Shown here in pieces: positions 4,066 through 63,361 of a stretch of 63,488 nt of DNA (its first letter is position 1; each line of letters begins with the position of its first letter). Below the pieces are notes generated by a model. The model was given only the letters and a program-made list of their open reading frames with translations. It was not told where the DNA came from and did not search any database. The stretch is taken from the NCBI GenBank assembly GCA_036725705.1, contig DAIMDR010000001.1, positions 1 to 63,488 on the forward strand, written 5' to 3'. Made by a program: the position numbers and the translations under genes. Source of the DNA: Syntrophomonadaceae bacterium (GTDB lineage: Bacteria; Bacillota; Syntrophomonadia; Syntrophomonadales; Syntrophomonadaceae).

Positions 4066-4206
4066 CGTCTGCCCTCCTTCTGTATTAAGTTATAAAAGGC
4101 GTTATATTCTCCCATGCAGAGTCCTGGCGAAAGAATATTTACTCACCATGACGCAGTGCATTACACCAAGGATTATAATTGGTTTCGGTTTTTAAAAATA
4201 AATATC

Positions 4207-5214: not shown

Positions 5215-6294
5215 CTAACCTCTTCCTTTCGCCGGGGTATACCGGTAATAAGCCGCACAGGAACCTTCATGTGAAACCATACAGGGGCCCACCGGATTTA
5301 AAGGCGTGCAGGCCCGTCCAAATAAAAGACAATCCGGCGGGTTGATTTTACCGGTTAACACTTCACCGCAGGCACAACCTTTTATGGGCATTTCCTCCAT
5401 ATCCGGTATGTTAAATTTGAGTCGGGCATCCATACTTTCATATTCCTCACGCAAAGCCAGGCCACTGTCAGGAATAACCCCCAGGCCTCGCCACCGGGCC
5501 TCCACCGGTTTAAATACCTTTTCAATACTCTGCCGGGCCACCAGATTGCCTTCCCGCTTGACTACCCGCCGGTATTGTATCTCTGCCTGTGCATCTCCCT
5601 GCTTTATCTGTTTAAGCAGCATAAAGATGCCTTCCAAAATATCCATGGTTTCAAATCCGGTAATTACACAGGGTTTTTTATACTTATGCGCTAAAATCTC
5701 ATAAGGTTCCACCCCAATTACCACTGAAACATGTCCGGGACAAATCAAACCGTCCACATTAATATTCGGATCGGAGAATATTAATTCCAAAGCCGGCGGA
5801 ACCACCTTGTGCAGTGAAAACACTGAAAAATTACTTAACCCTTCTGACCTGGCCTGTTCCAGGGTAATAGCAATCGCCGGAGCAGTAGTTTCAAAGCCAA
5901 TGCCCAGAAATACTACTTCTTTATCAGTATTTTCGCGGGCAACTCTCAATGCATCCAGCGGCGAATAGGCTATACGGACATCAGCCCCCTGGCTGCGTTC
6001 TTCCTGCAAACTGCTGTAAGTACCGGGTACTCTCATCATATCTCCGAAGGTTACCAGCACAATATCCTTCTGCCTTGCCATTTCAATAACTGCATCAATA
6101 TCTCCCTGAGAGGTAACGCATACCGGACAGCCCGGTCCGGATAACAGCTTAATATTGGGAGGCAGCAGTTCTCTGATCCCACTTTTGGCTATAGCCATCG
6201 TATGAGTACCACAGACCTCCATCAGCGAAACAGTTGCCTTTTCTGTTTGAATAGCCTGCAATAATTGCTGCCGGTAATCTGATATTTCACTCAT
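5215..6294 (-). CDS. hypD: [NiFe] hydrogenase maturation protein HypD
   Basis: Motifs CGTHT, GPGCPVCV, GFETT and PGHVS are present. The ATG at 6294 (MSEISDY...) overlaps the hypC stop by 8 nt. The track ORF extension to 6384 lies inside hypC and is unlikely to be real. Confidence 0.92.
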   Translation of the reverse strand: MSEISDYRQQLLQAIQTEKATVSLMEVCGTHTMAIAKSGIRELLPPNIKLLSGPGCPVCVTSQGDIDAVIEMARQKDIVLVTFGDMMRVPGTYSSLQEERSQGADVRIAYSPLDALRVARENTDKEVVFLGIGFETTAPAIAITLEQARSEGLSNFSVFSLHKVVPPALELIFSDPNINVDGLICPGHVSVVIGVEPYEILAHKYKKPCVITGFETMDILEGIFMLLKQIKQGDAQAEIQYRRVVKREGNLVARQSIEKVFKPVEARWRGLGVIPDSGLALREEYESMDARLKFNIPDMEEMPIKGCACGEVLTGKINPPDCLLFGRACTPLNPVGPCMVSHEGSCAAYYRYTPAKGRG

Positions 6295-6508
6295 ATTGCA
6301 ATAACTCCTCCAGATACTGCATGGTTTCCAGGGCAATGCTTTCATCAATAATTTCCATGGCAAAACCGGCATGTACCAGTACATATTCGTTAATCTTCAC
6401 TTCCGGGGTCAGACGAACACTGATTTCGGTCTGATTACCATTTACATCCACACGGGCAACATCATTGGCCATTAACTCAATAACTTTGGCGGGTACTCCC
6501 AAACACAT
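6287..6508 (-). CDS. hypC: [NiFe] hydrogenase maturation chaperone HypC
   Basis: 73 aa starting MCLGVPAKV, the canonical HypC N-terminus with the essential Cys2. Confidence 0.93.
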   Translation of the reverse strand: MCLGVPAKVIELMANDVARVDVNGNQTEISVRLTPEVKINEYVLVHAGFAMEIIDESIALETMQYLEELLQYE

Positions 6509-8769
6509 TATCCCTTCACCTCACTAGCTATAATTGCCTGTCCCAGTGATATTCCTCCGTCTCCCGGAGGCACAATTTGGTTATAATATACTGCAAACCC
6601 CTGCCGGGTTAATAATTTATACATTTTTATAAATAATATCTGGTTATGAAATACTCCCCCACTCAATACTACTCGATTTAAACCAGTTGCCTCTCTGAGT
6701 TGCAATAGGGTTTCCAAAAACATTTCCACCAGGGTCAGATGGAACTTCTGGGCAATACAACCCACGCTGCGGCCTTTTTGTAAATCGTTCAATAATTCTG
6801 GCCACATGGGCAGTACATCCATCAACCATACCCCATTATCCGCCTGCAAATGGTATTCATAATGGTTTTTCTCATATTTATCAGCCCGGGCTTCCAGCTC
6901 CGCCGGCGCCTGACCTTCATATTTATTTATAGTGCAAACCCCTAAAATTGCACCTGCCGCATCAAATAACCTGCCGCAGGAGGAAGTCAGCGGTTCACGG
7001 GCATAATTAATCCGGTTGATAATTAAATTCTTTTCCTGTTCAGTTAAATCCGGCAATAGCGATGAAGCTAAATCAAGCCCCTTTTCACCAAGTGCCTGAT
7101 ATAAATATACCAGCGCCATACGGTAAGGTTTGCCGGCGGTAACATCTCCGCCTGGCAGCGGTACATATTTCAAATGAGCCAAGCGGGTAAATCCATTATA
7201 ATCACCACGCAGGATTTCGCCGCCCCAAATGGCAGCATCAGTCCCCCAGCCGGTTCCATCACAGATTAACCCTAAAACTTCCCCCTGTAAACCGTTTTCG
7301 GCCATGACCGAGGCCATATGAGCATGATGATGCTGTACTTCCAAACGCTTAATATCCTTTTGCTGGCGGGCCCAGCGACTGGTCTGATAATCGGGGTGCA
7401 AATCATGCACTATGGTTTGCGGTTCTACATTTAACATTTTTTTAAAATACTTTATACCCTTTTGAAAGTTTACATAATTATTATAATGATTCAGATCACC
7501 CCAATGCTGGCTGAGAAATGCTTCCCCACTTCTGGTTATGCAAAAAGTATTTTTCATCTCTCCACCTGTTGCCAGCACCGGCGGTGAGTCTACCGGAATA
7601 ATTATCCCACCCGGCACCATTCCCCGTGCGCGTCTGAATACCTGCGCAGACTGCAACGCGGTTACGCGCACAACTGAATCATCACAGGGATTATATATAT
7701 CACGATTATGCAATAAGAAATAATCAGCAATTTCATCTAACTTTTGTAACGCTTCATTATTATCAGTTATTAATGGTTCATCACTGATATTGGCACTGGT
7801 CATTATTAATATTTCCAGTTCATCATCAAAGAGCAGATAATGCAACGGAGTATAGGGCAGCATAACTCCCAGAGTATCAAGCCCCGGATGTATTAGCTCC
7901 CCAGGAAGAGCAGTATCATTTTGTTCCTCCACCACTACAATTGGAGCCGAACGGGAATTTAACCATTTCTCTTCTTCCTGATTAATCAGGCAGTAACGGT
8001 GAGCTGTTTCCATATCCCTAACCATAACCGCAAAAGGTTTCCGATCCCGTTTTTTCCGCTGACGCAAACTGGTAACCGCCTGAAGATTAGTAGCATCGGC
8101 AGCCAGATGAAAGCCGCCCAATCCCTTAATGGCAACTATAAAGCCAGCCTTCAGTAATTGGCGTATATCCTGCCTGACCATCTCACCCTGACGATCAACC
8201 AGCCAGGTATGAGGTCCGCAAACCGGGCAGCAATTTGGCTGGGCATGAAAGCGTCTATGCAGCGGATTTTCATATTCCGCCTGGCATTGTGGGCACATGG
8301 CAAATCCGGCCATAGTAGTCATAGCCCGGTCATAAGGTACATCCTTTATTATCGTATAACGGGGTCCGCAATTAGTACAATTGGTGAATGGATACTCAAA
8401 ACGACGATCCGCACTATCCCTTACCTCAGTTTTACAGTCATCACATATGGCAATATCAGGTGATAGTACAACTGTTTTTTCCTGCCGGTCGTCACTGGAT
8501 TTTATAATAAATTCTGTATAACCTCTCTCCTCAACCTCCTGCACGGTTAAACTTTTAATAACTGCCAATGGAGGAGGTTCTTGCTGTAACTTGACTAAAA
8601 AGGCCTGCAATGCCTCCCTGTCACCTTCTGCTTCTATGAAAACTCCAGATGAAGAATTAAACACCCAGCCTTTTAAATTATATTGCATGGCCAGACGGTA
8701 GATATAAGGTCGAAACCCTACCCCCTGAACAATTCCTCTAATATTGATACTACATGCCTGAATATTCAT
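6508..8769 (-). CDS. hypF: Carbamoyltransferase HypF
   Basis: 753 aa with an acylphosphatase-like N-terminus (GIVQGVGFRPYIY), two CxxC-x18-CxxC zinc-finger pairs, and YrdC-like and Kae1-like domains. Confidence 0.93.
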   Translation of the reverse strand: MNIQACSINIRGIVQGVGFRPYIYRLAMQYNLKGWVFNSSSGVFIEAEGDREALQAFLVKLQQEPPPLAVIKSLTVQEVEERGYTEFIIKSSDDRQEKTVVLSPDIAICDDCKTEVRDSADRRFEYPFTNCTNCGPRYTIIKDVPYDRAMTTMAGFAMCPQCQAEYENPLHRRFHAQPNCCPVCGPHTWLVDRQGEMVRQDIRQLLKAGFIVAIKGLGGFHLAADATNLQAVTSLRQRKKRDRKPFAVMVRDMETAHRYCLINQEEEKWLNSRSAPIVVVEEQNDTALPGELIHPGLDTLGVMLPYTPLHYLLFDDELEILIMTSANISDEPLITDNNEALQKLDEIADYFLLHNRDIYNPCDDSVVRVTALQSAQVFRRARGMVPGGIIIPVDSPPVLATGGEMKNTFCITRSGEAFLSQHWGDLNHYNNYVNFQKGIKYFKKMLNVEPQTIVHDLHPDYQTSRWARQQKDIKRLEVQHHHAHMASVMAENGLQGEVLGLICDGTGWGTDAAIWGGEILRGDYNGFTRLAHLKYVPLPGGDVTAGKPYRMALVYLYQALGEKGLDLASSLLPDLTEQEKNLIINRINYAREPLTSSCGRLFDAAGAILGVCTINKYEGQAPAELEARADKYEKNHYEYHLQADNGVWLMDVLPMWPELLNDLQKGRSVGCIAQKFHLTLVEMFLETLLQLREATGLNRVVLSGGVFHNQILFIKMYKLLTRQGFAVYYNQIVPPGDGGISLGQAIIASEVKG

Positions 8770-8806
8770 TATTAACCTCTGATGCGTTTAATTATTTAGC
8801 AGATAA

Positions 8807-8860
8807 TTTAAAAGGGTGAGTCACAGAAGAATAATATCTGTCACTTCTGCAACCCACCCT
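8807..8860 (-). terminator. Hairpin plus U-run between the endopeptidase gene and hypF; a possible internal terminator or processing site
   Basis: The minus strand reads AGGGTGGGTTGCAGAAGTGACAGATATTATTCTTCTGTGACTCACCCT followed by TTTTAAA. There is an outer stem AGGGTG/CACCCT and an inner stem CAGAAG/CTTCTG. Confidence 0.45.
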
Positions 8861-8882
8861 AAAAGCGAATCGTATAAAAGGT

Positions 8883-9347
8883 TCAATTAGCAAGTATTTC
8901 TGCAATATCTTTTTGAATCATTTCTACAATCAAAGCAACTTGCTCTGCCACAACCGATGTAAGTTCCAATCCCAGATCCACTGTATGTGGTTCAACTCCA
9001 TAAATAAGCACTTTGGGATTGTAACCTTCCAATTGCAACATATACATGGCCTCTGCAAAGCTTAGTTCATGCAGGGATTGGATATCCGGATTCGGATTCA
9101 AATCCAACTCTGCCAATGGAACCCGGTAAACAGTTCCCGGTTTTTCTCCGGCATGCATGGCATCAACCACAATACAAAAATCTGCCTGGCTGAAATAATC
9201 AAGTAAATCGTAGCTATGCGTACCCCCATCCACCAGTTCCACCTGAGGCGGCAAATCCAGAGTCTCCAGGTGCCTTATGACATGAACACCGACTCCATCA
9301 TCCTGCATTAATAGATTGCCAATACCCATTACCATAATTCGTTTCAA
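8883..9347 (-). CDS. Hydrogenase maturation endopeptidase (HyaD/HybD/HupD family)
   Basis: 154 aa with the motif GIGNLLMQDDGVGVHV. A TTG start is preceded by a GGAGGA RBS. Confidence 0.9.
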   Translation of the reverse strand: MKRIMVMGIGNLLMQDDGVGVHVIRHLETLDLPPQVELVDGGTHSYDLLDYFSQADFCIVVDAMHAGEKPGTVYRVPLAELDLNPNPDIQSLHELSFAEAMYMLQLEGYNPKVLIYGVEPHTVDLGLELTSVVAEQVALIVEMIQKDIAEILAN

Positions 9348-9380
9348 GCCTTAATCCTCCATGTCTGCCGAAAATATAGC

Positions 9381-10007
9381 TTAACCCTCTTCCTCATGAT
9401 AACCGTGATGAAAATCAGCAGGTATCTTACCGGTAAACATGGACTTTAAAACCGGAATGCCTTCCGCCACATCCAGGTAAACATGCAGTAGAACTGACAA
9501 CACAAATAACCAGGTAACGATATAGTGGATCATACGAACTACTAAAAATCCTCCAAACCAGCCTGACATAAAGCCAAACAGCAAAGGCTTGTAGAGTATG
9601 AAACCAGTTATAATCATGATTATGGCCAAAAACAGCCATCCGGTATACATACCTTTCTGACCGGGATTATACTTTCCATAATAAGGATGGTCGTCAGCCA
9701 GAAACATATAATACTTCAACATACTGGGTAATTTCTTGGTATCCTCAACCGGTGAATATACAATATTTTTTGCATCGTTAGCCGCAATAGCATAATAAAC
9801 CCGACCAATAACCCCCACTACCAGAATATAAGCCATAATAAAGTGAATGGTTCTGGGCGTGTCCATATTACTGAACAACCTGAATGTCTGCGGAGCGTGA
9901 ATATAAAAGCCGGTTAAAGTTAACATGGTAATAGCAATCATATTGGTCCAGTGAAATATCCGGATCCATATGGAATGCCTGTCTTCCATCTGTTTTACCA
10001 TCTTCAC
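9381..10007 (-). CDS. [NiFe] hydrogenase b-type cytochrome subunit (HyaC/HupC-like)
   Basis: 208 aa with four predicted TM helices and the motif IRIFHWTNMIAITMLTLTGFYIH. It follows the large-subunit gene directly. The ATG at 10001 is a possible alternative start. Confidence 0.85.
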   Translation of the reverse strand: MKMVKQMEDRHSIWIRIFHWTNMIAITMLTLTGFYIHAPQTFRLFSNMDTPRTIHFIMAYILVVGVIGRVYYAIAANDAKNIVYSPVEDTKKLPSMLKYYMFLADDHPYYGKYNPGQKGMYTGWLFLAIIMIITGFILYKPLLFGFMSGWFGGFLVVRMIHYIVTWLFVLSVLLHVYLDVAEGIPVLKSMFTGKIPADFHHGYHEEEG

Positions 10008-10012
10008 ACCCC

Positions 10013-11467
10013 CTAGTTAATGGCAAACTGGCTGATGGTTTTCTTGTCAGGAGTCATAACATGGATAGCACAGCCTAAACAAGGGTCAAAGGACCGTACT
10101 ATTCTAACCAATTCAACCGGATTATTAGGATCGGCAACCCTGGTTCCGATTATTGCCTGTTCCATAGGTCCACGAACGGCACTGGCCCCGCTTCCGGTTC
10201 TGGGTCCGGCATTCCAGGTTGTAGGAACAACTGCATTATATACCATGGTGCGTCCATCGCTGCTGATGCGGTGCCAATGGCCTAATGCTCCACGGGAACC
10301 TTCACACAACCCCATTCCCACAACTTCCTTGTCAGGTAATTTATGCGGCGTACATACCGGCTTTCCAGGTTCCAGTTGCAACACCCATTTTTCCATCTCT
10401 TTGGCCATTTTGGCAGTTTCAATTGCCCGGGCAAAATGGCGTCCCATTACTGAGAAGGCTTTATCACCCAGAGCAGCTACATCCGGGTCTTTCATTATCC
10501 ATTGGCGGGCCAGAGGACCAACTTCCATGGCTTCACCGTTGTAACGCGGCGATTTCATCCAGGAATAAGCACCCTTCTTGTCCACATCAGGGCTGATAAC
10601 AGCTACATCAGGAGTTGTGCCATTAGTATCATCCTTGTACCAGGAATAAGTTACTTCCTCGGTGATCATATTGGCATCAACTTCGCCAAAACGGCCTCTG
10701 ATATAAGTTCCTGACTTGAAATACTTTTCTTTGTTTAAGTGATTCATTCCCTCTTCCTGAGGATAACCACCATAAGACAGCATATTCCTGCAACCGACTC
10801 CTATAGCAAACCAGTCAGCATAAGCTCCTGCTACCGCTTTAACGGTGGGAATATATTTATTATCAATAAAGGCCTGCATTTCTTTTAGCAAATTTATAAA
10901 CCGATATATTTTTGAAGTATCGGGCACTTCAGATACGCCACCAGGTACAATCGCCTGAACATGAGGCATCTTTCCGCCCCAGATAGCCAGCATTTCCTGG
11001 GCTTTACGCCGAATAGTCAATGCTTCCAGATAGGTGTTGACTGCCTCAGCATTTACATCATCCGGCAAACGATAATCTGCTTCATACCGCGGCTTAAATG
11101 GAGCAATATCCGGCCCTTTTACATAATCGAGAGCTGCCAGGTGAAAGAAATGAAGAATATTGGACTGAATCAGATTGGAACTCAAAATAAGGTTTCTAAT
11201 AATACGTCCGTTAGGAGGCGGTTCAATGCCAAACGCATCATCCAACGCTAAAATTCCGGCAGTCGCATGGGCTGTAGGACACACTCCACAAATTCTTTGC
11301 ATTATCTGTTCAGAATCACGCGGATCTCTGCCCTGCATGATAAGCTCCAGACCACGCCACAATGTTCCCGATGTCCAAGCATCAACTACTACACCGCCAT
11401 CAACTTCTACCTCCAGTTTGAGATGACCTTCGATTCTGGTTACTGGATCAACAACGATTCTCGCCAT
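10013..11467 (-). CDS. [NiFe] hydrogenase large subunit
   Basis: N-terminal RIEGH and RICGVCPTAH motifs and a C-terminal DPCLGCAIH motif. A 15-aa extension (VMTPDKKTISQFAIN) follows, which is expected to be removed by the endopeptidase. The start overlaps the small-subunit stop (TAATG). Confidence 0.93.
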   Translation of the reverse strand: MARIVVDPVTRIEGHLKLEVEVDGGVVVDAWTSGTLWRGLELIMQGRDPRDSEQIMQRICGVCPTAHATAGILALDDAFGIEPPPNGRIIRNLILSSNLIQSNILHFFHLAALDYVKGPDIAPFKPRYEADYRLPDDVNAEAVNTYLEALTIRRKAQEMLAIWGGKMPHVQAIVPGGVSEVPDTSKIYRFINLLKEMQAFIDNKYIPTVKAVAGAYADWFAIGVGCRNMLSYGGYPQEEGMNHLNKEKYFKSGTYIRGRFGEVDANMITEEVTYSWYKDDTNGTTPDVAVISPDVDKKGAYSWMKSPRYNGEAMEVGPLARQWIMKDPDVAALGDKAFSVMGRHFARAIETAKMAKEMEKWVLQLEPGKPVCTPHKLPDKEVVGMGLCEGSRGALGHWHRISSDGRTMVYNAVVPTTWNAGPRTGSGASAVRGPMEQAIIGTRVADPNNPVELVRIVRSFDPCLGCAIHVMTPDKKTISQFAIN

Positions 11468-12537
11468 TAGTCCTCACCTACTTTCACATCTTCTTCATTT
11501 TCTTTGCCAGGACCAATTCTGCCGGCTAATATATTGCCAGTCAAATGTCCACCAATTCCCAGTACCGTAGCTGCACCCAGAACTAATCCAACCTGATCGG
11601 CGGTAACACTGCTGGCGGGCCCAACCGGCACTTCCGGAACTCTCTCATACATAGGCCAACCCGGGAATTGCGGTTCGGTACAACCTATGCAAACTGAACC
11701 ACACTGAACGCACCAGTTGGTACCATTATTCCATAACCTTGTGGTGGCATCACAATGAGCAAATGGTCCCTTGCAACCCAATTCCAGCATACATCCCATT
11801 TCTCCAAAGGTTTTCGCAAAAATTCCATTGTCAAAATACTGCCTTCTCTGGCAATTATCATGAATTATAGTATTAAAAAACATCTTGGGTCGACCAAATG
11901 AATCCAAATCCGGAATTTCATTATATAGCAGAACATGAGCTATGGTACCTACCATCCAATCAGGATGAGGCGGACAACCAGGCACATTGATTATTGGTAC
12001 ATCTTTGATAACAGAACCGACTGGCACACAATTAGTCGGATTAGGTGGAGTAGCCGGAACACCGCCATAGGCTGAGCAAGTTCCAAAGTTTAATATAGCA
12101 CTGGCCTTGCTGCCAACATCTTTTAACAACTTTTCAAATACAACATGATGCCCGTCTTCTTCCCCTACCATACAAAAGCGTCCATCGGCACCTAAAGGTA
12201 CAGCACCTTCTACGACCAGGTAGAATTTACCAGCGTTCTCCTCCGCCACCTTGTAAACGGCTTCTTTGAGAGCCAGGTCTCCGGCAGCAGCGCTGATATT
12301 GGGATGATAGGTCAAGCTGATAACTTCGGTTAAAACTTTTTGAATATCGGGATGCACAGTATTCAACAAGGATATAGAACATCCGGTACAGGAAGCTCCC
12401 TGAATCCAGATAACTGGTGGTGCTCCAGCTGCTACTGCCTCAGCCATAAACGGGGCCAAATACCCTGACAGTGATATGGCAGCAGCCGATCCTGCACATA
12501 GTTTCACAAAGTCGCGTCGACTCAGTTTACTAGGCAT
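11467..12537 (-). CDS. [NiFe] hydrogenase small subunit with a Tat signal peptide and a C-terminal membrane anchor
   Basis: Twin-arginine signal MPSKLSRRDFVKLCAGSAAA. The Cys-rich FeS cluster pattern is present. The C-terminal hydrophobic helix is GLVLGAATVLGIGGHL. Confidence 0.92.
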   Translation of the reverse strand: MPSKLSRRDFVKLCAGSAAAISLSGYLAPFMAEAVAAGAPPVIWIQGASCTGCSISLLNTVHPDIQKVLTEVISLTYHPNISAAAGDLALKEAVYKVAEENAGKFYLVVEGAVPLGADGRFCMVGEEDGHHVVFEKLLKDVGSKASAILNFGTCSAYGGVPATPPNPTNCVPVGSVIKDVPIINVPGCPPHPDWMVGTIAHVLLYNEIPDLDSFGRPKMFFNTIIHDNCQRRQYFDNGIFAKTFGEMGCMLELGCKGPFAHCDATTRLWNNGTNWCVQCGSVCIGCTEPQFPGWPMYERVPEVPVGPASSVTADQVGLVLGAATVLGIGGHLTGNILAGRIGPGKENEEDVKVGED

Positions 12538-12704
12538 TTAACTCATTCCCCCCAACATAAATTATTACTAATTCATCAGATCTGTTCTAATCCCAATCAA
12601 GTGACTTTTACCGCAATATGCCATTGTCAATAAAATTAACTCCGGCAAATATATTGAGCAGCAGGTCAGTCACTTTAGCCATTATTGGCTTTCTCTATCT
12701 ATAT

Positions 12705-13364
12705 TTAAGCCCGCTTGGCGCTCACCTCCCTTAAAAGCCACTCGTTCCAATCATTTATGCCCTCACCGGTCCGCCCCGAAACTAAAAATAATGGAGCCGA
12801 AGGGTTGATCCGGGCTAAATCTTCCCTGAACCGTTCCAAACTAAAATCGGTATAAGGCAGCAAGTCAATTTTATTCAGTAAAATAACTCCTGCTTCCCTG
12901 AAAATCAGCGGATATTTGGTTAATTTATCATTACCCTCGGCAGTACTCATAACTACTGCTTTTAAGTCTTCCCCCAGGTCGAATTCAGCCGGGCAAACCA
13001 GATTACCAACATTTTCAATGAAAAGTAAATCCAGATCATCGCCGGGTAATTCCTGAAAAGCTTTATCTACCATTCCGGCATCCAGGTGACAGGCCCCCTC
13101 AGTATTAATCTGAATTACCCGCACCCCTTTATTTTCAATTCGCTGAGCATCCTGATCCGTATACAGATCGCCCTCAATAACACCTAATTTAAGCCGGCCA
13201 TTTAAACTATCAATGGTTTTCTCCAGAATGGTTGTTTTACCGGAACCCGGAGAACTCATTAAATTAATAACCAGCAACCCCTGCGCAGAAAATATATTAC
13301 GATTTTTACGGGCCAGCAGCTCATTAGCCCCGAGTATATTATGTTCCAGCCGCACTTTTACCAT
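12705..13364 (-). CDS. hypB: Hydrogenase nickel-incorporation GTPase HypB
   Basis: P-loop SSPGSGKTT, metal-binding EGACHLDA and NKIDL are present. The ATG at 13364 has the RBS GAAGGAGAC 7 nt upstream. The track ORF start at 13382 lies inside the end of hypA. Confidence 0.92.
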   Translation of the reverse strand: MVKVRLEHNILGANELLARKNRNIFSAQGLLVINLMSSPGSGKTTILEKTIDSLNGRLKLGVIEGDLYTDQDAQRIENKGVRVIQINTEGACHLDAGMVDKAFQELPGDDLDLLFIENVGNLVCPAEFDLGEDLKAVVMSTAEGNDKLTKYPLIFREAGVILLNKIDLLPYTDFSLERFREDLARINPSAPLFLVSGRTGEGINDWNEWLLREVSAKRA

Positions 13365-13368
13365 GGTT

Positions 13369-13716
13369 TCAGTCTCCTTCATAATAATCCAGATACAGCT
13401 CCCGTCCCTGGATTATATCTACCTGATTTGAGCCACATCCCGAACAGACGAATATATGCTGTTCCTGGCGGGTAAACAGCTGCTGACACTGCTGGCAACT
13501 GCATATAACTTCCTTTTCCTCTATTTCCAGAACTGCTCCCTGAAACAGGTCTTCGCCGGCACTGATTACCTCAAAAGCAAACAGCATACTATCCGGCAGG
13601 ACCATGGACAACTTGCCTACCACCAATCCGACTTTGCTGACCTTGCTGATGCTATTCGCCGCGGCACTGTCTCTGACTGCATCCATTACTCCCTGCATTA
13701 ACGCCAGTTCATGCAA
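13369..13716 (-). CDS. hypA: Hydrogenase nickel-insertion protein HypA
   Basis: 115 aa with the N-terminus MHELALMQ (the Ni-binding MHE motif) and the zinc site CSCQQC ... CSGCGS. Confidence 0.92.
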   Translation of the reverse strand: MHELALMQGVMDAVRDSAAANSISKVSKVGLVVGKLSMVLPDSMLFAFEVISAGEDLFQGAVLEIEEKEVICSCQQCQQLFTRQEQHIFVCSGCGSNQVDIIQGRELYLDYYEGD

Positions 13717-13764: not shown

Positions 13765-13956
13765 AAAAAAAATCCAGCAACGAAATGCTGGACTCCTTAG
13801 CGCACCAATATTAACCTGATATCTTTCATAGATATCCTTATCAGCCGCCTGACTCAGCATCTCCTTTTCACAATGGAAGGCACACTCGTTTCCCAATGCA
13901 CCCAATAACCTGATATCATAGTGTTCATCACCTGCAGATACTCAGGCTCGGAGAAT
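13765..13956 (-). promoter_or_regulatory. Riboswitch-like leader unit B (hypA-proximal): Moco/Tuco-like core plus intrinsic terminator
   Basis: On the minus strand the core spans 13956-13860: ATTCTCCGAGCC...ATGATATCAGGTTATTGGGTGCA...TGTGCCTTCCATTGTGAAAAGGAGATGCTGAG. The 5' TCTCC can pair with the 3' GGAGA. The terminator TCCAGCA-TTTCGT-TGCTGGA plus T8 spans 13793-13765, 49 nt before the hypA ATG. Confidence 0.6.
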
Positions 13957-13975
13957 AGCTCCTTATAATGTTTCA

Positions 13976-14188
13976 TAAAATAATCCGGCAACGAAATGCC
14001 GGACATCATAGCACACCAATATTAAACATGATACCTTTCTTAGGTACACTTATCAGCTGCCTGAACTCAGCATCTCCTTTTACAATTAAAGGCCCACCCG
14101 TACTTGTTTTCACAATACACTTTTTCTCAGTGTGGCCTATGGCCTGATAATATCAGTGTTCATCACTTTATATTCAGACCGGGAGAAC
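13976..14188 (-). promoter_or_regulatory. Riboswitch-like leader unit C (distal): Moco/Tuco-like core plus intrinsic terminator
   Basis: On the minus strand the core spans 14188-14073: GTTCTCCCGGTCT...GATATTATCAGGCCATAGGCC...GGGCCTTTAATTGTAAAAGGAGATGCTGAG. It carries an extra internal hairpin (ACAC-TGAGAAAAA-GTGT). The terminator TCCGGCA-TTTCGT-TGCCGGA plus TTATTTT spans 14004-13976. Confidence 0.55.
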
Positions 14189-14415
14189 AGAGTATTATTT
14201 TTTAATTAGATCAGTATACTATCTTCGTTAAAAGATATAAAACTCCTGCAAAAAAAGACTTATTCACAATTTTTATTTAAAATTAACATATTTTAGTTTT
14301 TATTATCTTTTTTTATAGTTTATATTAATTATTATAATATTAACTACATAATTATATCAAGAGGGAAATAAGGTGCAAGGGGAAATGGACAACAGGACTT
14401 TGAGGCTGCTAAAAT

Positions 14416-14615: not shown

Positions 14616-15431
14616 CTAGCCATGAACATAATAATGGTTATGTTCTTCTTCCCCATGAACATGACAGTATTCATCAATCAGATTAACTGACATCAGCAGG
14701 GACTTATTGGTCAGAGCCTCATGGCTGGGTCCGTCAAAGACCAACTGATGATCTTCCGACAGTACCAGAGCGCGTTTGGATATGGCATGGGCAAGTTCCA
14801 GATTATGCGTAGCGGTTATTATGGTTCTTCCCCTTTTATTCAGTTCCAGCAGCAATTCAATTAACCAGCGCTGGGTTTTAGGATCCAATCCATTAGTAGG
14901 TTCATCGAGAATCAATACCTCGGGATTAAGAATTAATGTGGAGGCCACTGCCACCTTTTTCTTTTCTCCTCCACTCAGGTGATAAGGCGAGCGATCTGCC
15001 AGGCTTTGTAAATTAAGCAGGTTAAGCACATCTTCTACCCGGGAAGCTATGTCCTGCTTGTTTAACCCCAGTTGCCGGGGTCCATAAGCTATCTCATCCC
15101 AAACCCGGGTGTTAAAAAGCTGGGCTTCAGAATTCTGAAAAATAAAACCTACCCGACGATGATATCTTTGAGCAACCCGGTTATCTTCCATAAGGCCTTC
15201 ACTTATTTCCTGCCCAAAAGCATATAAACGACCGGCGCAGGGAAAAGCCAGACCGCAAAATATCTTTAATAAAGTTGATTTTCCTGAGCCATTGGCGCCC
15301 AGCAGGCAGACACTCTCACCGCCCGCTATCTTCAGACTCAGATTATTAAAAAGATTATCCCCGCTACCATAACTAAAGGCAATTCCATCTAAAACAAAAA
15401 CAGTATTATTCAAAAAAAGAAGGCCTCCCAT
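14616..15431 (-). CDS. cbiO: ECF/CbiO-type ABC transporter ATP-binding protein (cobalt/nickel importer ATPase)
   Basis: Walker A GANGSGKST, signature LSGGEKKK and Walker B LILDEPT are present. The start is uncertain. The ATG at 15431 gives a family-typical N-terminus, whereas the track ORF uses a TTG at 15473 that overlaps cbiQ. Confidence 0.85.
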   Translation of the reverse strand: MGGLLFLNNTVFVLDGIAFSYGSGDNLFNNLSLKIAGGESVCLLGANGSGKSTLLKIFCGLAFPCAGRLYAFGQEISEGLMEDNRVAQRYHRRVGFIFQNSEAQLFNTRVWDEIAYGPRQLGLNKQDIASRVEDVLNLLNLQSLADRSPYHLSGGEKKKVAVASTLILNPEVLILDEPTNGLDPKTQRWLIELLLELNKRGRTIITATHNLELAHAISKRALVLSEDHQLVFDGPSHEALTNKSLLMSVNLIDEYCHVHGEEEHNHYYVHG

Positions 15432-15465
15432 GCAAGCAAGTTCAATTACTAAAAACTTAGCATAT

Positions 15466-16350
15466 CTAAGCAATTAGTTCCAGTTGCCCGCATTCATCCA
15501 ATACTGCTTCGGGAATTGATCCGGTATAACAACGGGCGCACATGGCCTGATATACTTCCTCGGAAAGATTCATACTGCGATCAAATAGTGCCGCTATGGA
15601 AGATCCCACCTGGGCTTGCCGGCTTCGAAGCGCCAGATGTCCAACTGTACGAATTTTGCGGGCTTCAAACATTTCAATGGAAATTGACAGCAATACCATC
15701 AGATAGCGGTAGGTCATTTCCAGAATCATAATGAATAAATCCGGTACCCGCAAAACCCGTAACGATTTAAATATATCGGTTACCGGGGTAGTCATAATCA
15801 GCAATACACCCAGTGATAACGACAACCCCACCCGTAAAAACAAAAAGGTTACGGAGATGACCCCCTGCCGGCTTATAAAAATTGTCGCCGGCCAGTTTAT
15901 GCCCAGCCAATGGCCGGGCTGTTCAGATTGAAACAATACTATAAGCGGGGTACCGTCAATAAAAATATTAAGAGTCATGGGCATGGTAAAAAGCAATGTA
16001 ATGAGGGGAATAAATCCCCAAATTCGCTTCTGCATCATCAGAACCGGTAACCGGGAAAGATGCATAAGCAACATCGTCATTAATAACATAGCGAGCAATA
16101 CCGGTATCTGCCTGCTCAGACTAATTCCCAGAATAAGAATGATCATACTGACTAATTTCAGTTCAGGGCTAAATTTTTGTAATAGTCCATCACGTTTGGC
16201 CATATGCTCAGTTTGCATAGCTTCACAAATAACCTTACGCATATTGCGGATACTTTTAATCAGGTAATGGTTATTACCGGTTTTAAATGCAGTTGGGTTT
16301 TTATCTTTAAAATCAGACTCATTCATCCAGTCCGGAAGCAACATGCCCAT
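15466..16350 (-). CDS. cbiQ: ECF transporter transmembrane (T) component, CbiQ/NikQ-like
   Basis: 294-aa polytopic membrane protein located between the M/N components and the ATPase. The C-terminal region shows the conserved Arg-containing coupling-helix pattern (EARKIR). Confidence 0.8.
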   Translation of the reverse strand: MGMLLPDWMNESDFKDKNPTAFKTGNNHYLIKSIRNMRKVICEAMQTEHMAKRDGLLQKFSPELKLVSMIILILGISLSRQIPVLLAMLLMTMLLMHLSRLPVLMMQKRIWGFIPLITLLFTMPMTLNIFIDGTPLIVLFQSEQPGHWLGINWPATIFISRQGVISVTFLFLRVGLSLSLGVLLIMTTPVTDIFKSLRVLRVPDLFIMILEMTYRYLMVLLSISIEMFEARKIRTVGHLALRSRQAQVGSSIAALFDRSMNLSEEVYQAMCARCYTGSIPEAVLDECGQLELIA

Positions 16351-16367
16351 AACCCTTTCAATTATAT

Positions 16368-16682
16368 TTAATCTCTGACTACTTTGTATAACAGGCTGAC
16401 CACGGCTACCACCAGAGCTACACCAACTATTGCCGATAAAATATAACCACCGGCTGATTGTATAAAAGTAGCATCCATACCTGGAATGGCATAATCAGGC
16501 AGTGGACTTAAGGTCCAGATCTCAGCAAATCTTTCCAAACCGGCCGGAATAAAACCGACCTCCCCGGGTAATTCATCCAGGCCCCATTCACCAAATGCTG
16601 TTCCGGTTGCTAATAAACCCAGGGGGGATAAAATTATAAAGGCTCCCAGGACCAGCCATAAATTACGATAGCTTTTAAACAT
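16368..16682 (-). CDS. PDGLE-domain small membrane protein (CbiN/NikN-like partner of CbiM/NikM)
   Basis: 104 aa with two TM helices flanking FGEWGLDELPGE...PLPDYAIPG (PDGLE-type motif). The start overlaps the cbiM stop. Confidence 0.7.
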   Translation of the reverse strand: MFKSYRNLWLVLGAFIILSPLGLLATGTAFGEWGLDELPGEVGFIPAGLERFAEIWTLSPLPDYAIPGMDATFIQSAGGYILSAIVGVALVVAVVSLLYKVVRD

Positions 16683-17397
16683 GCTTCTCTACCCCCAGAT
16701 CATCAATTTTCACGCCATTGGAAAACCTCTGCGCCAGTACGGCCGGATAATTTTTACCCACAAACCATAAACCAGCTGCTGTTACTAATCCCTCTACCGG
16801 ACCGGCCAGGATCAGATGTTCACTCATCATGGCTATCACCGCCACCTTCAAAGGGACCGGAAAGAATAAAGGAGTCCCGTCAGCCGCCTGAAACAGATGG
16901 TACTGAGAGCCAAATTCCACCGCTGTAAATAAAGCGGCTATATTTAATCCAACATAACCGGCAATAAAAGCTGCTGCCATCGCCCGCCCCGACAGATTAT
17001 CGGCATTGCCTTTAATCAGCCTGTAAGTCAGATATCCCACCCAGGGCATGATAAAAGCCATATTAAAACAGTTCGCCCCCACAGCCAGGACACCACCGTC
17101 GCCAAATATTAAAGCCTGAATTATCAAGGCCGTAGACACACCTATACAGGCTGCCCACGGCCCAAGAAGTATGGCCAGCAACACTGCTCCTACCGCATGA
17201 GCCGAGCTTCCTCCCGGTATAGGAAGATTGAACATCATAATCGTAAAAGAAAAGGCTGCTCCAATAGCCAGTACCGGGATATCTTTCTTTTTAACTTCCG
17301 ACTGCACTTTCTTTACCGCAATTCCCCAGAGTGGAACCATGGCAACTACAAAAGGAATAGCTGTTTGCGGACTTAAATAACCATCCGGTATGTGCAT
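16675..17397 (-). CDS. cbiM: CbiM/NikM substrate-capture component of a Co/Ni ECF importer; probably nickel-specific given the flanking hydrogenase genes
   Basis: The N-terminus MHIPDGYLSP is the metal-chelating N-terminus typical of CbiM/NikM. 240 aa, polytopic. The RBS is AAGGGAGGG. Confidence 0.88.
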   Translation of the reverse strand: MHIPDGYLSPQTAIPFVVAMVPLWGIAVKKVQSEVKKKDIPVLAIGAAFSFTIMMFNLPIPGGSSAHAVGAVLLAILLGPWAACIGVSTALIIQALIFGDGGVLAVGANCFNMAFIMPWVGYLTYRLIKGNADNLSGRAMAAAFIAGYVGLNIAALFTAVEFGSQYHLFQAADGTPLFFPVPLKVAVIAMMSEHLILAGPVEGLVTAAGLWFVGKNYPAVLAQRFSNGVKIDDLGVEKHV

Positions 17398-17698: not shown

Positions 17699-17877
17699 GG
17701 CATAAAAGCAAATATTTATACTTACTATTATTATATAACATAACATGAAGCAGTATGAAACTGCTTTAAAGCAATGCTTCTACCAAACCATTTCCTGCTG
17801 ACCTGCCTTAACAAAAAGCAGGTTGTCCTCAAAATATATCCATGAAGGATTAAATGTAACCAGAATTTAATAGCACC

Positions 17878-18065
17878 ATTCTCCGAGCCTCTTGGTCTAA
17901 GGCACTAAAAGCTATGATTATCAGGCCATTGGGTTCATGAGCAAACTTATGGGCCTTCCATTATGTAAAGGAGATGCTTAGGTTAGATTATTTGCATAGA
18001 CCTGGATTTTTAAAAGTTCCTGGCTTTGTAAAAAATGGCCGGCATTTCTGTCGGCCATTTTTATT
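17878..18065 (+). promoter_or_regulatory. Riboswitch-like leader unit A: Moco/Tuco-like core plus intrinsic terminator upstream of the [FeFe] hydrogenase operon
   Basis: The core spans 17878-17976: ATTCTCCGAGCCTCTTGGTCTAAGGCAC...ATGATTATCAGGCCATTGGGTTCAT...ATGGGCCTTCCATTATGTAAAGGAGATGCTTAG. The terminator ATGGCCG-GCATTTCTGT-CGGCCAT plus TTTTATT spans 18031-18065. It is paralogous to units B and C, including the CATTTC terminator loop. Confidence 0.6.
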
Positions 18066-18269
18066 GGGAACTTTTAAATAAGGCTTCAGTTGCTTAAGGA
18101 TATTTAGGCCTGAAAGTCAATTCAAGGGGAGGTGAGCAATAGGAAGCCATATTATTTCAACATTATAGCTTCCTGAATAAAGAATCCGGTTTATTGGTGG
18201 GTGAGGGAATTGAGGAACTTTGTCGTGCTTCCCTCAAACCGTAATTAGAAATTGGAGGAGGGATAAGGT

Positions 18270-19439
18270 TTGAGCACAGCTACATTAACAGACACAGAGA
18301 TCATTAAGATAACTAACAAATGCAAAGCCTGTGATCACTGTACTTCTGTGTGTCCGACCGGCGCTGCTAAAGGCCTTCTCGGGCAAAAACATTATATTGA
18401 TTATAAAACCTGTATAAACTGTGGACAATGTCTGATCAACTGTCCTTTTGGCGCGATTACTGACAGTAGTACCGTAGATCAGGTTAACCAGGCCCTGAAA
18501 GACCCCGGTAAAACAGTAATCGTTCAGGAAGCTCCTGCTGTCCGGGTAGCACTGGGAGAAGAATTTGGACTGCCCATCGGCACCAATGTCAAGGGCAAAA
18601 TGCATGCTGCTTTGCGTAAACTGGGTTTTGACAAGGTATACGATACTGAATTTGCTGCTGACCTGACTATTATGGAAGAGGGCACCGAATTGATTCACCG
18701 GGTATTTAAAATGGCCGGAGTAGCAGGTTTCGAGGATAGAGGGCCATTGCCCCAGTTTACATCCTGTTGTCCTGCCTGGATTAAATATGCTGAAGATAAA
18801 TACCCGGCCGTACTGCCACATTTATCATCGGCCAAGTCTCCGCAGCAAATGTTTGGAGCCATAGCCAAAACCTATGCAGCCAAAAAGCAGGGAGTTAATC
18901 CAGCTGATATGGTATCCGTGTCAGTTATGCCCTGCACCGCCAAAAAATATGAATCCGAGCGTCCCGAAATGATAGCCAGCGGCTTTAAAGATGTTGATTA
19001 TGTAATAACTACCCGTGAATTGGCCTCCATGATTAAGGATGCCGGAATTGATTTTGCAAACCTTCCGGATGAAGAAGCTGATAAGCTAATCGGTTCTTCT
19101 ACCGGTGCAGCTACCATTTTCGGAGTTACCGGTGGAGTTATGGAAGCCGCCTTGCGTACTGCCTACGAAGTTCTCAGCGGAGAAAGCCTGGATAAAGTAG
19201 AGTTCAAGGCGGTACGCGGTATGCAGCCGGTGCGTGAAGCTACCGTGGAAATTCCCGTCAAAGATTTGGGGATAACCTTACCGGTCAATGTCTGTATAGT
19301 AACCGGTACCAAATATGTTGATAAAGTAGTTGAGGATGTAATAGCCGGTCGCAGCAACTATCACTTTATTGAAGTGATGAACTGCCCGGGCGGATGTATC
19401 AATGGCGGTGGTCAGCCCATTCGTCATGAAATGTATTAG
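18270..19439 (+). CDS. hydA: [FeFe] hydrogenase large (catalytic) subunit, periplasmic HydA type
   Basis: Two N-terminal ferredoxin-type [4Fe-4S] motifs (CKACDHCTSVCP and CINCGQCLINCP). The H-cluster motifs TSCCPAW, MPCTAKKYE and EVMNCPGGCINGGGQP are present. A TTG start follows the RBS GGAGGAGGG. Confidence 0.9.
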   Translation: MSTATLTDTEIIKITNKCKACDHCTSVCPTGAAKGLLGQKHYIDYKTCINCGQCLINCPFGAITDSSTVDQVNQALKDPGKTVIVQEAPAVRVALGEEFGLPIGTNVKGKMHAALRKLGFDKVYDTEFAADLTIMEEGTELIHRVFKMAGVAGFEDRGPLPQFTSCCPAWIKYAEDKYPAVLPHLSSAKSPQQMFGAIAKTYAAKKQGVNPADMVSVSVMPCTAKKYESERPEMIASGFKDVDYVITTRELASMIKDAGIDFANLPDEEADKLIGSSTGAATIFGVTGGVMEAALRTAYEVLSGESLDKVEFKAVRGMQPVREATVEIPVKDLGITLPVNVCIVTGTKYVDKVVEDVIAGRSNYHFIEVMNCPGGCINGGGQPIRHEMY

Positions 19440-19455
19440 GAAAGGAGGAGGGCTA

Positions 19456-19815
19456 ATGAGTATTTTTAAAGAAAAATCAGTATTTACCCGCCGACAGTTC
19501 CTGATAGGTTCAGGCATGCTGGCGGCTACTGCAGTTATAACCGGCATATTTGCCAAGTTTGGCTTTGATGCTTATGCGGTAAGTCAAGACTATATTGCCA
19601 AAAGAGCTGCTGGTCTTTATAATCTCGATGAAAAAATGGCCATAAGGAAATCCCATGAAAACCCTGAAATATTACAGATTTACAAAGACTTTTTGTCACC
19701 GGGAGAGGTTAGCCCGGTGAGTGAAAAAGCTCATCATCTCCTGCACACCAAATATGGCAGGGAAATCCCTGCTATGATTGAAGAATTACATGCTCACCGG
19801 CATGATGCGGCGTAG
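19456..19815 (+). CDS. hydB: [FeFe] hydrogenase small subunit with a Tat signal peptide (HydB type)
   Basis: The ATG at 19456 follows AAAGGAGGAGGG. The N-terminus is MSIFKEKSVFTRRQFLIGSGMLAATAV, a twin-arginine signal. The 119-aa size matches Desulfovibrio-type small subunits. The track ORF start at 19402 lies inside hydA. Confidence 0.8.
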   Translation: MSIFKEKSVFTRRQFLIGSGMLAATAVITGIFAKFGFDAYAVSQDYIAKRAAGLYNLDEKMAIRKSHENPEILQIYKDFLSPGEVSPVSEKAHHLLHTKYGREIPAMIEELHAHRHDAA

Positions 19816-19826
19816 GAGGTAATAAT

Positions 19827-20486
19827 ATGAGCGAAATTAATGGAAAAGTACTTAAACACGGTGAACAAACCCGAACCATGCACTGGGTGCATATGATAGC
19901 TTTCATTATCCTGGCCTTGACCGGTATTGGTTTCTACTTTGATATCGGCTTTATTGCCGGAATTTTTGGCGGCGAAGCCAACTCTTCCCTGGTTCATCGC
20001 TGGGCGGGAGTAGTATTTACCGTTGGTCCTGCTCTTTATATTTTATTAAACTTTGAACGCTTTGCCCGGTTTATGAATACTATCGCTACCATTACCAAAG
20101 ACGATATCGGCTGGCTGAAAACCATGGGAGGCTATATTCCTTTCCTGAAAGGAGAAGTACCGCCGCAGGATAAATATAATGCCGGCCAGAAAATGCTGGG
20201 GCATTTAATCATTATTGGCTGCCTGCTGATGATACTGACCGGTTTCCCCATGTGGTTATGGCGGGCAGTAGTACCAGCCGCCTTTTTGGCCTTTTGTTAC
20301 AATATTCATTTTTGGGTGGCGGTGATATTGATTCTGGCCATTGCCGGTCACTTTTTCCTGGCAGCTATTCACCCCAAATCCAGAGTGGAATTTGCTTCCA
20401 TGATGATGGACGGCTATATTGATGCCGAAATCAGTGCCCATCACAACGAAAAATGGTTTAATAGTTTGCAGGAAGTAAAAGAATAA
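19827..20486 (+). CDS. b-type cytochrome membrane subunit (FdnI / hydrogenase cytochrome b family)
   Basis: 219 aa with four TM helices, the motif RTMHWVHMIAFIILALTGIGFYF and conserved His residues in the helices. It lies 11 nt after hydB. Confidence 0.8.
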   Translation: MSEINGKVLKHGEQTRTMHWVHMIAFIILALTGIGFYFDIGFIAGIFGGEANSSLVHRWAGVVFTVGPALYILLNFERFARFMNTIATITKDDIGWLKTMGGYIPFLKGEVPPQDKYNAGQKMLGHLIIIGCLLMILTGFPMWLWRAVVPAAFLAFCYNIHFWVAVILILAIAGHFFLAAIHPKSRVEFASMMMDGYIDAEISAHHNEKWFNSLQEVKE

Positions 20487-61097: not shown

Positions 61098-61112
61098 GTT
61101 AAACTCCCAGCC

Positions 61113-61973: not shown

Positions 61974-62032
61974 TGATACCCTCCTTGCCACCTCTGGCTC
62001 AGCTTAATTTATTTCCTGAAAAAGCATATATA

Positions 62033-62863: not shown

Positions 62864-63361
62864 CAGCCTCTTCCTTTCCATAAAAAACAATTAATTCTGC
62901 CTAACTAAAAAGCTGCCGGGTAATACAAAATATTTTTCCCTGCCTGCCCTTAAATTAGCAGGCTTTATCATGGCTTACGGTTATTTCAGGAGGAGTTTAA
63001 ATAAATATTACCTGAAGTAAAACCCGGGGTTAACTTCATAGCAATCACCTCTCTATAAAATATTTACCCATGTATCTGGTTAGCTAATCCCAAAACAATC
63101 AGGCTGTTACTCTTCTATTCCTTTTAAAACTTCATATAATCACACTAAAATAAGGATTTTGATATACATATTTTATCACAACCTTATTATTTTGTTTATT
63201 TATGTTTATTCATGTTGATTTTTGTCTCTTTATGTAAGGCCATTCAGTGTGTATAAAAACGATATTTTTGGTTATTTGGGTCCAAATGGTGCCGATACTG
63301 GCAGCGGTAGTCCGGCTGACAAAGCCCAGAGAGTATCGGTGCCAGTCTTTACAAGCTCACT

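Follow-up and report, generated by a model that had tools for sequence, protein, structure and literature searches.

A P3-less Moco/Tuco-type aptamer with its own terminator precedes an [FeFe] hydrogenase operon in a Syntrophomonadaceae bacterium

Why should an RNA family known from genes of the molybdenum and tungsten cofactors (Moco and Tuco) stand in front of a hydrogenase operon? The question is raised by a 63,488-nucleotide stretch of DNA from a Syntrophomonadaceae bacterium (contig DAIMDR010000001.1 of assembly GCA_036725705.1; hereafter the window), in which an initial annotation had described three related, riboswitch-like leaders: units A and B in tandem upstream of hypA on the minus strand, and unit C upstream of hydA on the plus strand. 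Here we report that unit C is a true member of the RF01055 family, of the subclass lacking the P3 stem, that it is conserved before orthologous hydA operons, that its helices covary and that its 3' tail is complementary to its own terminator. We consider that this P3-less RF01055 (Tuco/Wco) element probably acts in cis as a transcriptional OFF switch on the operon for hydA, a hydrogenase small subunit and a cytochrome b. The original definition of the Moco/Tuco regulon covers genes that make, transport or use the cofactor, and an [FeFe] hydrogenase with a cytochrome b falls outside it. A hydrogenase exception is documented for the P3-less subclass, however, so the downstream genes are no argument against membership of the RNA family.

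When the whole 63-kb window was scanned with Rfam cmscan, only two matches reached the gathering threshold (36 bits for RF01055), and both were to RF01055, the Moco/Tuco aptamer. One is unit C, a P3-less Moco/Tuco (Wco) class aptamer at 17869-17991 on the plus strand, which matches the full model (positions 1-135; 62.5 bits, E 1.3e-12). Our own covariance model placed its core at 17877-17975 (83.9 bits), in agreement with the 17878-17976 given in the initial annotation. The other match is unit B of the hypA leader (13845-13965, minus strand; 48.1 bits), and in both Rfam alignments the P3 stem (model positions ~60-75) is deleted. In unit C, P1 is formed by 17879-17884 and 17970-17975, P2 by 17887-17897 and 17916-17926 with the receptor-like UCUAAG...UAUGA, and P4 by 17931-17941 and 17946-17956 around a CAAA loop (17942-17945), while P5 lies around 17957-17966. 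As the junction of RF01055 we took CUCCGAGCC, GCC...GGG, CCUCCC and GGAAAGGAG. Unit C keeps CUCCGAGCC, AGGCC, UUGGG and AAAGGAG, and has CCUUCC in place of CCUCCC, a variant common to unit B, L001, L005a and L083 (L-numbers denote hydrogenase and formate dehydrogenase (FDH) loci of relatives that we compared with the window). Three sequence blocks had been described as shared by all three units; they are exact in unit C, and alignment showed those of the hypA units to be similar rather than identical, unit B having ATTCTCCGAGCC exactly, followed by ATGATATCAGGTTATTGGGT and TGCCTTCCATTGTGAAAAGGAGATGCT. Two independent metagenome assemblies (L175 and L176) contain the hydA leader at 100% identity, with CAAA likewise fixed, which excludes an assembly artefact. 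For the cytochrome b of the hydA operon, the exact protein is present in 52 blocks of the metagenome index.

The secondary structure was assessed in an alignment of 15 hydrogenase-linked aptamers, where 90% of the helix cells were paired, compared to 75.5% in shuffled alignments (0 of 500 reached 90%), and 23 of the 33 pairs showed changes on both sides; the alignment was fitted to the model, and these pairing figures lean towards it. Sliding the partners by 1-3 columns reduced pairing to 37-50%. Because of these slid controls, and of independent Rfam scores of up to 89 bits in orthologous leaders, we regard the aptamer structure as secure.

The leader also follows the gene. The nearest relatives of HydA are encoded in Syntrophomonadaceae metagenome-assembled genomes (MAGs), at 90% identity in L001 and 75-82% in L002-L006 and L081-L083. 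At 8 of the 10 loci with at least 75% HydA identity (the window, L001, L003, L004, L005, L006, L081 and L083) an aptamer lies upstream of the hydA orthologue on the same strand, and in L003, L005, L006 and L081 there are two in tandem. Among ~150 [FeFe] hydrogenase loci at 47-56% identity, an aptamer was found in three only (L045, L093 and L097).

Members of this family have been reported before near hydrogenase genes. In the description of the Moco RNA (Regulski et al., 2008; PMC2408646), 58 of 176 members lacked P3, and the correlation of these P3-less members with tungsten-cofactor genes was nearly perfect, a link that the initial annotation had stated correctly. Sensing of the tungsten form by the P3-less subclass is proposed from that gene context and from transcriptomics of Eubacterium limosum under tungsten limitation (PMC11725836). 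Syntrophomonas wolfei has at least 15 copies of the RNA, some in tandem or triple arrays with terminators, and its P3-less class also precedes genes for tungstate transport, molybdopterin synthesis and FDH (PMC2408646). The word 'hydrogenase' is absent from the main text of the 2008 paper; its Supplementary Figure S2 gives Swo-1-8/Swo-1-10 as 'RNA->RNA->NapF Fe_hyd_lg_C->Fe_hyd_SSU->FdnI', which is the S. wolfei orthologue of the hydA operon, and the supplement places a P3-less aptamer in that organism before Hyd2, a membrane FDH-N-like operon and a cytoplasmic FDH/MoeA operon. One line in Sherlock et al. (2022; PMC9481103) names, as genes that follow tandem Wco riboswitches, 'ferredoxin hydrogenase' and the 'nickel and zinc binding hydrogenase' protein. 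Both associations seen in the window are already on record, and the element is known in kind. The dedicated co-regulation circuit postulated for the locus stands in that one family precedes both hydrogenase operons, and falls short of being new (2008 supplement; PMC9481103). Neither of these two sources proposes how or why hydrogenase genes are linked to the RNA. In the literature that we searched there was likewise no rationale, and nothing that ties Swol_1925/Hyd2 to a riboswitch or to tungsten regulation.

Sequence and folds place an intrinsic terminator at 18030-18065 on the plus strand (18031-18065 in the initial annotation), consisting of an A-run, an 11-bp G+C-rich stem with the loop UUUC, and then UUUUUAUU. 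In the DNA its arms read AATGGCCGGCA (18034-18044) and TGTCGGCCATT (18049-18059) around TTTC, followed by TTTTTATT. The minimum-energy structure shows it as a hairpin of 11-14 bp, and a central stem pair has a probability of 0.99996 in the full-length ensemble. The hairpin starts ~55 nt 3' of P1 and is self-contained, neither arm overlapping the aptamer; as had been noticed, its top resembles those of the hypA terminators, the motif GCATTTC being common to units A, B and C. RNAduplex and folds predict the 5' half of an antiterminator at 17970-17983 on the plus strand, that is, the 3' strand of P1 and its tail (GGAGAUGCU, then GGU). GGAGAUGCU (17970-17978) pairs with GGCAUUUCU (18041-18049) and GGU (17981-17983) with GCC (18038-18040), so that the partner, 18038-18049, comprises the terminator's upper 5' arm, its loop and the first base of its 3' arm. 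The duplex of tail and terminator in unit C reaches -19.3 kcal/mol in RNAduplex, where shuffled sequences average -10.9 (p=0.012). In growing unit C transcripts, the antiterminator with P1 open is the minimum-energy fold at lengths 175-178, after emergence of the terminator loop; with the 3' arm transcribed as well, P1 plus terminator is preferred (-57.9 kcal/mol, versus -53.6 for the forced antiterminator). Another candidate antiterminator, GGCCAU (17925-17930) with the terminator's AUGGCC, was ruled out on sequence inspection, as it is not conserved in unit B.

A similar complementarity recurs across the units. We paired the 3' part of each aptamer (P5, the junction and the P1 3' strand with 8 further nt) with its own terminator; a hairpin and U-tract without aptamer overlap follow every unit except L004 and L006b. 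These duplexes ranged from -12.7 to -26.1 kcal/mol, with p<0.05 against 500 shuffles in 12 of 15 units, and were often as strong as the terminator hairpin itself. Across 13 units, cognate duplexes averaged -19.3 kcal/mol and non-cognate ones -14.5, a difference reached in 0 of 20000 permutations. In L081 a change in P1 from GGAG to GAAG is matched in the terminator loop, GAAGC pairing with GCUUUUUUC, and L093, L097 and L045 show a classical design in which AAGGAG of P1 faces CUCCUU in the 5' arm of the terminator. When transcripts of intermediate length are folded, units C, B, L003a, L006a and L081a all have the antiterminator as their minimum-energy structure; unit B also adopts it if P1 is blocked or the RNA truncated. 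Unit C thus combines, on the evidence of sequence, folds and covariation, an aptamer in the 5' untranslated region (UTR), on the same strand as its gene, with a mutually exclusive terminator and antiterminator, as expected of a riboswitch.

Complementarity of this kind, between an aptamer's 3' end and the top of the terminator that follows it, amounts to an antiterminator design, and the ligand-bound state should therefore be OFF. As the terminator does not overlap the aptamer, the ligand cannot break the terminator, only release it. The initial annotation held that the leader gates hydA; leader anatomy and conservation both agree with this, and it is from them that we infer gating itself. In the following course, we infer where transcription starts, which way the switch works and which ligand is bound. 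Transcription would start upstream of 17869 and the aptamer would fold first. Without ligand, P1 would be weak and 17970-17983 would be caught by 18038-18049 of the emerging terminator (its loop and upper 5' arm), a pairing that would delay the terminator and let polymerase read through into hydA. With ligand bound, P1 would be locked, the terminator at 18030-18065 would form and transcription would end before hydA. The same logic may apply in tandem at the hypA-hypB-[NiFe] operon on the other strand, and ample cofactor would then repress both hydrogenases, whereas scarcity would de-repress them.

Several observations nonetheless weigh against an OFF switch that responds to the tungsten cofactor. 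Two close hydA orthologue loci, L002 and L082, carry no aptamer, and nor do the hydABC loci L163 (Dehalobacter), L164 (Syntrophothermus) and L166 (Syntrophomonas sp.), which together with L165 were reached through cytochrome b homologues. In L165 (Desulfosporosinus sp. Tol-M) the orthologous operon is led by RF01055 aptamers that do contain P3, a tandem pair (2850-2981 and 3053-3184) with equal scores and a terminator each. Aptamers linked to hydrogenase genes thus occur outside the P3-less class as well, and the Desulfosporosinus pair suggests that the logic applies to the pterin cofactor generally, and not to tungsten only. The assignment to tungsten as opposed to molybdenum comes from the 2008 correlation only, and we found no direct ligand-binding assay in the literature, where the evidence is genetic and correlative (PMC2408646, PMC11725836). 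The P4 loop of unit C (17942-17945) is CAAA and not GNRA; its orthologue L001 and unit B have GAAA, as do nearly all RF01055 members (Regulski et al., 2008; PMC2408646). The receptor-like sequence in P2 is intact, and the CAAA loop could weaken tetraloop-receptor docking. Upstream of 17869, the promoter is a weak consensus match only (TTAACA-16-CAAAAT, 17808-17835), and the gap of ~200 nt between terminator and hydA may leave room for an internal promoter. Finally, the terminator state of unit C is 4.3 kcal/mol stabler than the forced antiterminator and persists with P1 blocked, and its antiterminator is thermodynamically weaker than those of units B, L003a and L006a. Since the terminator of unit C is favoured thermodynamically, switching must be kinetic.

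That preference for the terminator, with P1 blocked or not, would also suit an ON switch, in which cofactor binding promotes read-through and the hydrogenases are made only alongside working molybdenum or tungsten enzymes, for example for the interconversion of formate and H2. Activation would make sense for those family members that precede genes of cofactor-using enzymes, and one leader looks to be of this type. In a Firmicutes MAG (L161; GCA_017889545.1), a P3-less aptamer at 4084-4214 lies 33 nt before an FDH alpha gene that has a twin-arginine translocation (Tat) signal and is split by a selenocysteine codon. The L161 leader (to 4250) has no terminator. When it is folded without ligand, segments of the aptamer occupy its Shine-Dalgarno sequence and AUG, and an ON switch is suggested in this single, modelled case. 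For unit C we nevertheless think an ON switch unlikely: the terminator arms do not overlap the aptamer, so the ligand cannot destroy the terminator, and the sole conserved alternative pairing sets the 3' strand of P1 against the terminator. Moreover, P3-less RF01055 leaders with terminators in E. limosum (fetABC1 and focA) are induced by tungsten limitation (PMC11725836), the direction expected of an OFF switch.

It might instead be that the element is decaying or bypassed, its CAAA aptamer unresponsive, its terminator constitutive or leaky, and the hydA promoter located within 18066-18269. The population is fixed for a P4 loop that is not GNRA, unit A and L004 are examples of decaying units, several orthologous operons have no element at all, and in L003, L005, L006 and L083 an extra terminator-like hairpin and ~250 nt of AT-rich sequence lie between the riboswitches and hydA. 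Against this, the remaining core nucleotides and helices of unit C are intact, its score is far above threshold and the complementarity of tail and terminator has been maintained. The leader is moreover conserved as one block with L001 while its flanks are not: window and L001 can be aligned almost throughout from the aptamer to hydA, and the DNA upstream of the aptamer cannot be aligned. A promoter scan of 18066-18269 found no sigma-70-like site on the plus strand. We therefore hold decay or bypass to be improbable as an account of unit C.

Could the hydrogenase-linked aptamers sense a metal, or a metabolite related to hydrogenase, and not the molybdenum or tungsten pterin cofactor? Their context in the window is entirely one of hydrogenase, nickel insertion and nickel/cobalt transport, and no Moco/Tuco aptamer was found, even with filters off, upstream of a modABC-like oxyanion transporter (60054-62890, minus strand; SBP_bac_11 binding protein, permease, and ATPase with TOBE domain). 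However, the family-defining nucleotides of the junctions are retained, orthologous leaders score up to 89 bits, alignment A3 shows no systematic difference in the core, and in S. wolfei the P3-less class also stands before genes for tungstate transport, molybdopterin synthesis and FDH; such a change of specificity is very unlikely. We give as little credence to the idea that the switch mainly makes or controls a short non-coding transcript, the terminated leader or a downstream small RNA, and not hydA: a conserved module of hairpin, C/U-rich strand and terminator does lie 3' of the riboswitches in L003, L005, L006 and L083, but it is absent from the window, L001 and L081, and in L093 and L097 the aptamer-terminator unit lies directly before the ribosome-binding site of the hydrogenase gene.

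This module, between the riboswitch-terminator units and hydA (L003 3666-3790, L005 3731-3860, L006 3662-3785 and L083 4668-4800), consists of a hairpin AAAAAGC..GCUUUUU, a nearly invariant single strand CAUACAAUC(C/U)CAAUCUUUUUC(C/U)UCC, a hairpin CCCGCUU..AAGCGGG and a U-rich tail. In these four loci it is conserved more strongly than the aptamers themselves. It has no match in Rfam and is found nowhere in the window; it could be a small RNA under riboswitch control or a further attenuator.

An OFF switch in this position can be set beside several known systems. The E. coli moaA riboswitch is an OFF switch (PMC2408646), and unit C resembles this Moco RNA in P1-P2-P4-P5, in its junction nucleotides and what looks like the P2 tetraloop receptor, in its place in the 5' UTR and in its OFF logic. 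Unlike the moaA element, it lacks P3, uses a terminator as platform in place of sequestering a ribosome-binding site within P1, has a CAAA and not a GAAA loop on P4, and precedes genes that neither make, transport nor use the cofactor. Swo-1-8/Swo-1-10 of S. wolfei are closer, with an orthologous operon, the same subclass and a terminator for each unit, and hypA is also a named target (PMC9481103). The window differs in having a single unit before hydA where S. wolfei has a tandem, a hypA pair of which one copy has decayed, and a Ni/Co transporter flanked by both operons. With the Tuco leaders of E. limosum, unit C shares the P3-less aptamer, the intrinsic terminator and target genes outside biosynthesis; those leaders are de-repressed at low tungsten, but their targets are iron uptake and a formate channel, with no hydrogenase among them. 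Adenosylcobalamin riboswitches on metE or nrdDG repress substitutes that are independent of the cofactor. The logic that we propose is alike, in that plentiful cofactor would switch off an enzyme doing the job without it, whereas the RNA family and ligand are unrelated, and exchanging hydrogenase for FDH is a choice of electron carrier, not of isozyme.

What might be gained by such a choice? We tentatively raise the possibility that the tungsten-cofactor regulon of Syntrophomonadaceae is a toggle between two interspecies electron carriers, formate and H2. With the cofactor replete, tungsten-dependent FDHs would work, and transcripts of the quinone-linked [FeFe] Hyd2-type and [NiFe] hydrogenases would be terminated in their leaders; with the tungsten cofactor short, the FDHs would fail, the cofactor-independent hydrogenase operons would be read through and electrons would leave as H2. 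In S. wolfei, the external, cytochrome b-anchored Hyd2 and the membrane FDHs are alternative menaquinol oxidisers in reverse electron transfer, and which of them dominates is 'growth condition dependent' (PMC5101538). Both the membrane FDH and Hyd2 of that organism have an aptamer (2008 supplement). In our searches, the cytochromes b linked to FDH (P0084 family) and to hydrogenase were mutual closest relatives, which fits the idea of interchangeable modules on one quinol-oxidising anchor. The ON-type look of the FDH leader in L161, a single case, also agrees with a toggle. In butyrate-grown S. wolfei one laboratory observed induction of FDH-2 and of a tungstate ABC permease, with Hyd2 barely visible (PMC3582634), and another observed Hyd2 as dominant (PMC5101538); the toggle, if true, could explain this discrepancy. 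Whether syntrophic fatty-acid oxidisers pass H2 or formate to methanogens is an old question, of practical weight for anaerobic digestion, and an RNA before both quinone-linked hydrogenase operons offers a testable regulatory link from tungsten supply to that choice. The RNA itself is ordinary; the value of the locus lies in its regulatory logic, which the literature has touched only in passing. Among FDH loci sought through cytochrome b homologues, L161/L162 has an aptamer and the four related AFOR-FDH loci L168-L171 have none. The gene call at 4004-4792 in L161 overlaps the aptamer and is probably over-extended.

Downstream of unit C, an extracytoplasmic [FeFe] hydrogenase operon, as originally described, was confirmed by Pfam matches and a Tat motif. 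It begins with the hydA large subunit (18270-19439, plus strand, TTG start; Fe_hyd_lg_C, E 4e-95), followed by a small subunit with a Tat signal (Fe_hyd_SSU; motif TRRQFLIG; probable start 19456, end 19815) and a cytochrome b (19827-20486; Ni_hydr_CYTB), both on the plus strand. The longest open reading frame of the small subunit (window 19402-19456 region) overlaps hydA by 38 nt; the protein likely starts at Met 19456 (MSIFKEKSVFTRRQFL...), giving 119 aa as in the gene calls of identical contigs. The operon, 18270-20486, is the orthologue of S. wolfei Hyd2ABC. Genes for beta-oxidation are also present in the window.

Between terminator and hydA, the remaining ~200 nt of the 5' UTR (18066-18269, plus strand) contain a GGGGAGGTGA motif (18126-18135), two hairpins (AGGAAGC...GCTTCCT, 18141-18174; TGAGGGAA...TTCCCTCA, 18202-18236) and the Shine-Dalgarno sequence GGAGGAGGGA (18254-18263), all on the plus strand. 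The GGAGGTGA motif of this spacer recurs in all orthologous hydA leaders, where the distance from the GGGGAGGTGA motif to the true Shine-Dalgarno sequence downstream is 50-140 nt. In both hairpins the stems are kept between window and L001 and the loops differ; the 3' strand of the second resembles an anti-Shine-Dalgarno sequence. The fold of the spacer is not unusually stable overall (z = -0.03), and comparison of 18066-18269 with L001 revealed no conserved small open reading frame.

On the minus strand, the operon led by units A and B (4207-13716) encodes, by Pfam, hypA, hypB, the small and large subunits of a [NiFe] hydrogenase, a cytochrome b, a maturation protease, hypF, hypD and hypE. 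Rfam, our own model and Pfam bear out the view that one RNA family precedes both hydrogenase operons, on opposite strands and with a Ni/Co transporter between them. This ECF-type transporter (CbiM/PDGLE(CbiN-like)/CbiQ/CbiO; 14616-17397, minus strand; Pfam) is oriented divergently from the hydA leader, and the Rfam and own-model searches gave no aptamer for it. The cofactor-sensing RNA of the window is found on hydrogenase operons, and not on the modABC-like transporter of molybdenum/tungsten type. In L163 (Dehalobacter sp. TBBPA1; 4307-9737, 10519-10708) a CooT-like nickel chaperone is encoded before a hydABC orthologue, and a CbiM/Q/O transporter comes directly after it, an arrangement reminiscent of the linkage of hydrogenase and nickel transporter in the window; no Moco-class aptamer is present there, and a cobalamin riboswitch lies further downstream.

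Units A and B had both been described as short and seemingly stem-less. Unit B is a good P3-less aptamer, for which the terminator scan placed the terminator at 13767-13798. Unit A, the first of the pair (14072-14189, minus strand), is degenerate: it has no Rfam match even at E<=1, scores 21.9 bits (E 0.0015) with our own model, has CTCCCGG in place of CTCCGAG and carries an insertion of ~29 nt in P4, which makes a longer hairpin. It still has the GGAGATGCT tail and its own terminator (13983-14004; scan). If unit A no longer binds ligand, it would constitutively stop part of the transcripts before the functional unit B is reached. The relationship proposed between the hypA and hydA leaders holds, as units A, B and C and the L001 orthologue form the tightest cluster (71-88% identity, against 59-71% to the other hydA leaders) and share the tail GGAGATGCT and the terminator-top GCATTTC, which is consistent with duplication within the lineage. 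By eye, a promoter-like stretch upstream of the hydA aptamer in L001 (2270-2335; TTTTTGCAGGAATTTTAC...GATAGTAAACTGA) resembles the sequence upstream of unit A in the window (14200-14260, minus strand; TTTTTGCAGGAGTTTTAT...GATAGTATACTGA), and it appears closer to this than to the window's own region upstream of hydA. This hints that whole leader cassettes have been exchanged between the hydA and hypA operons.

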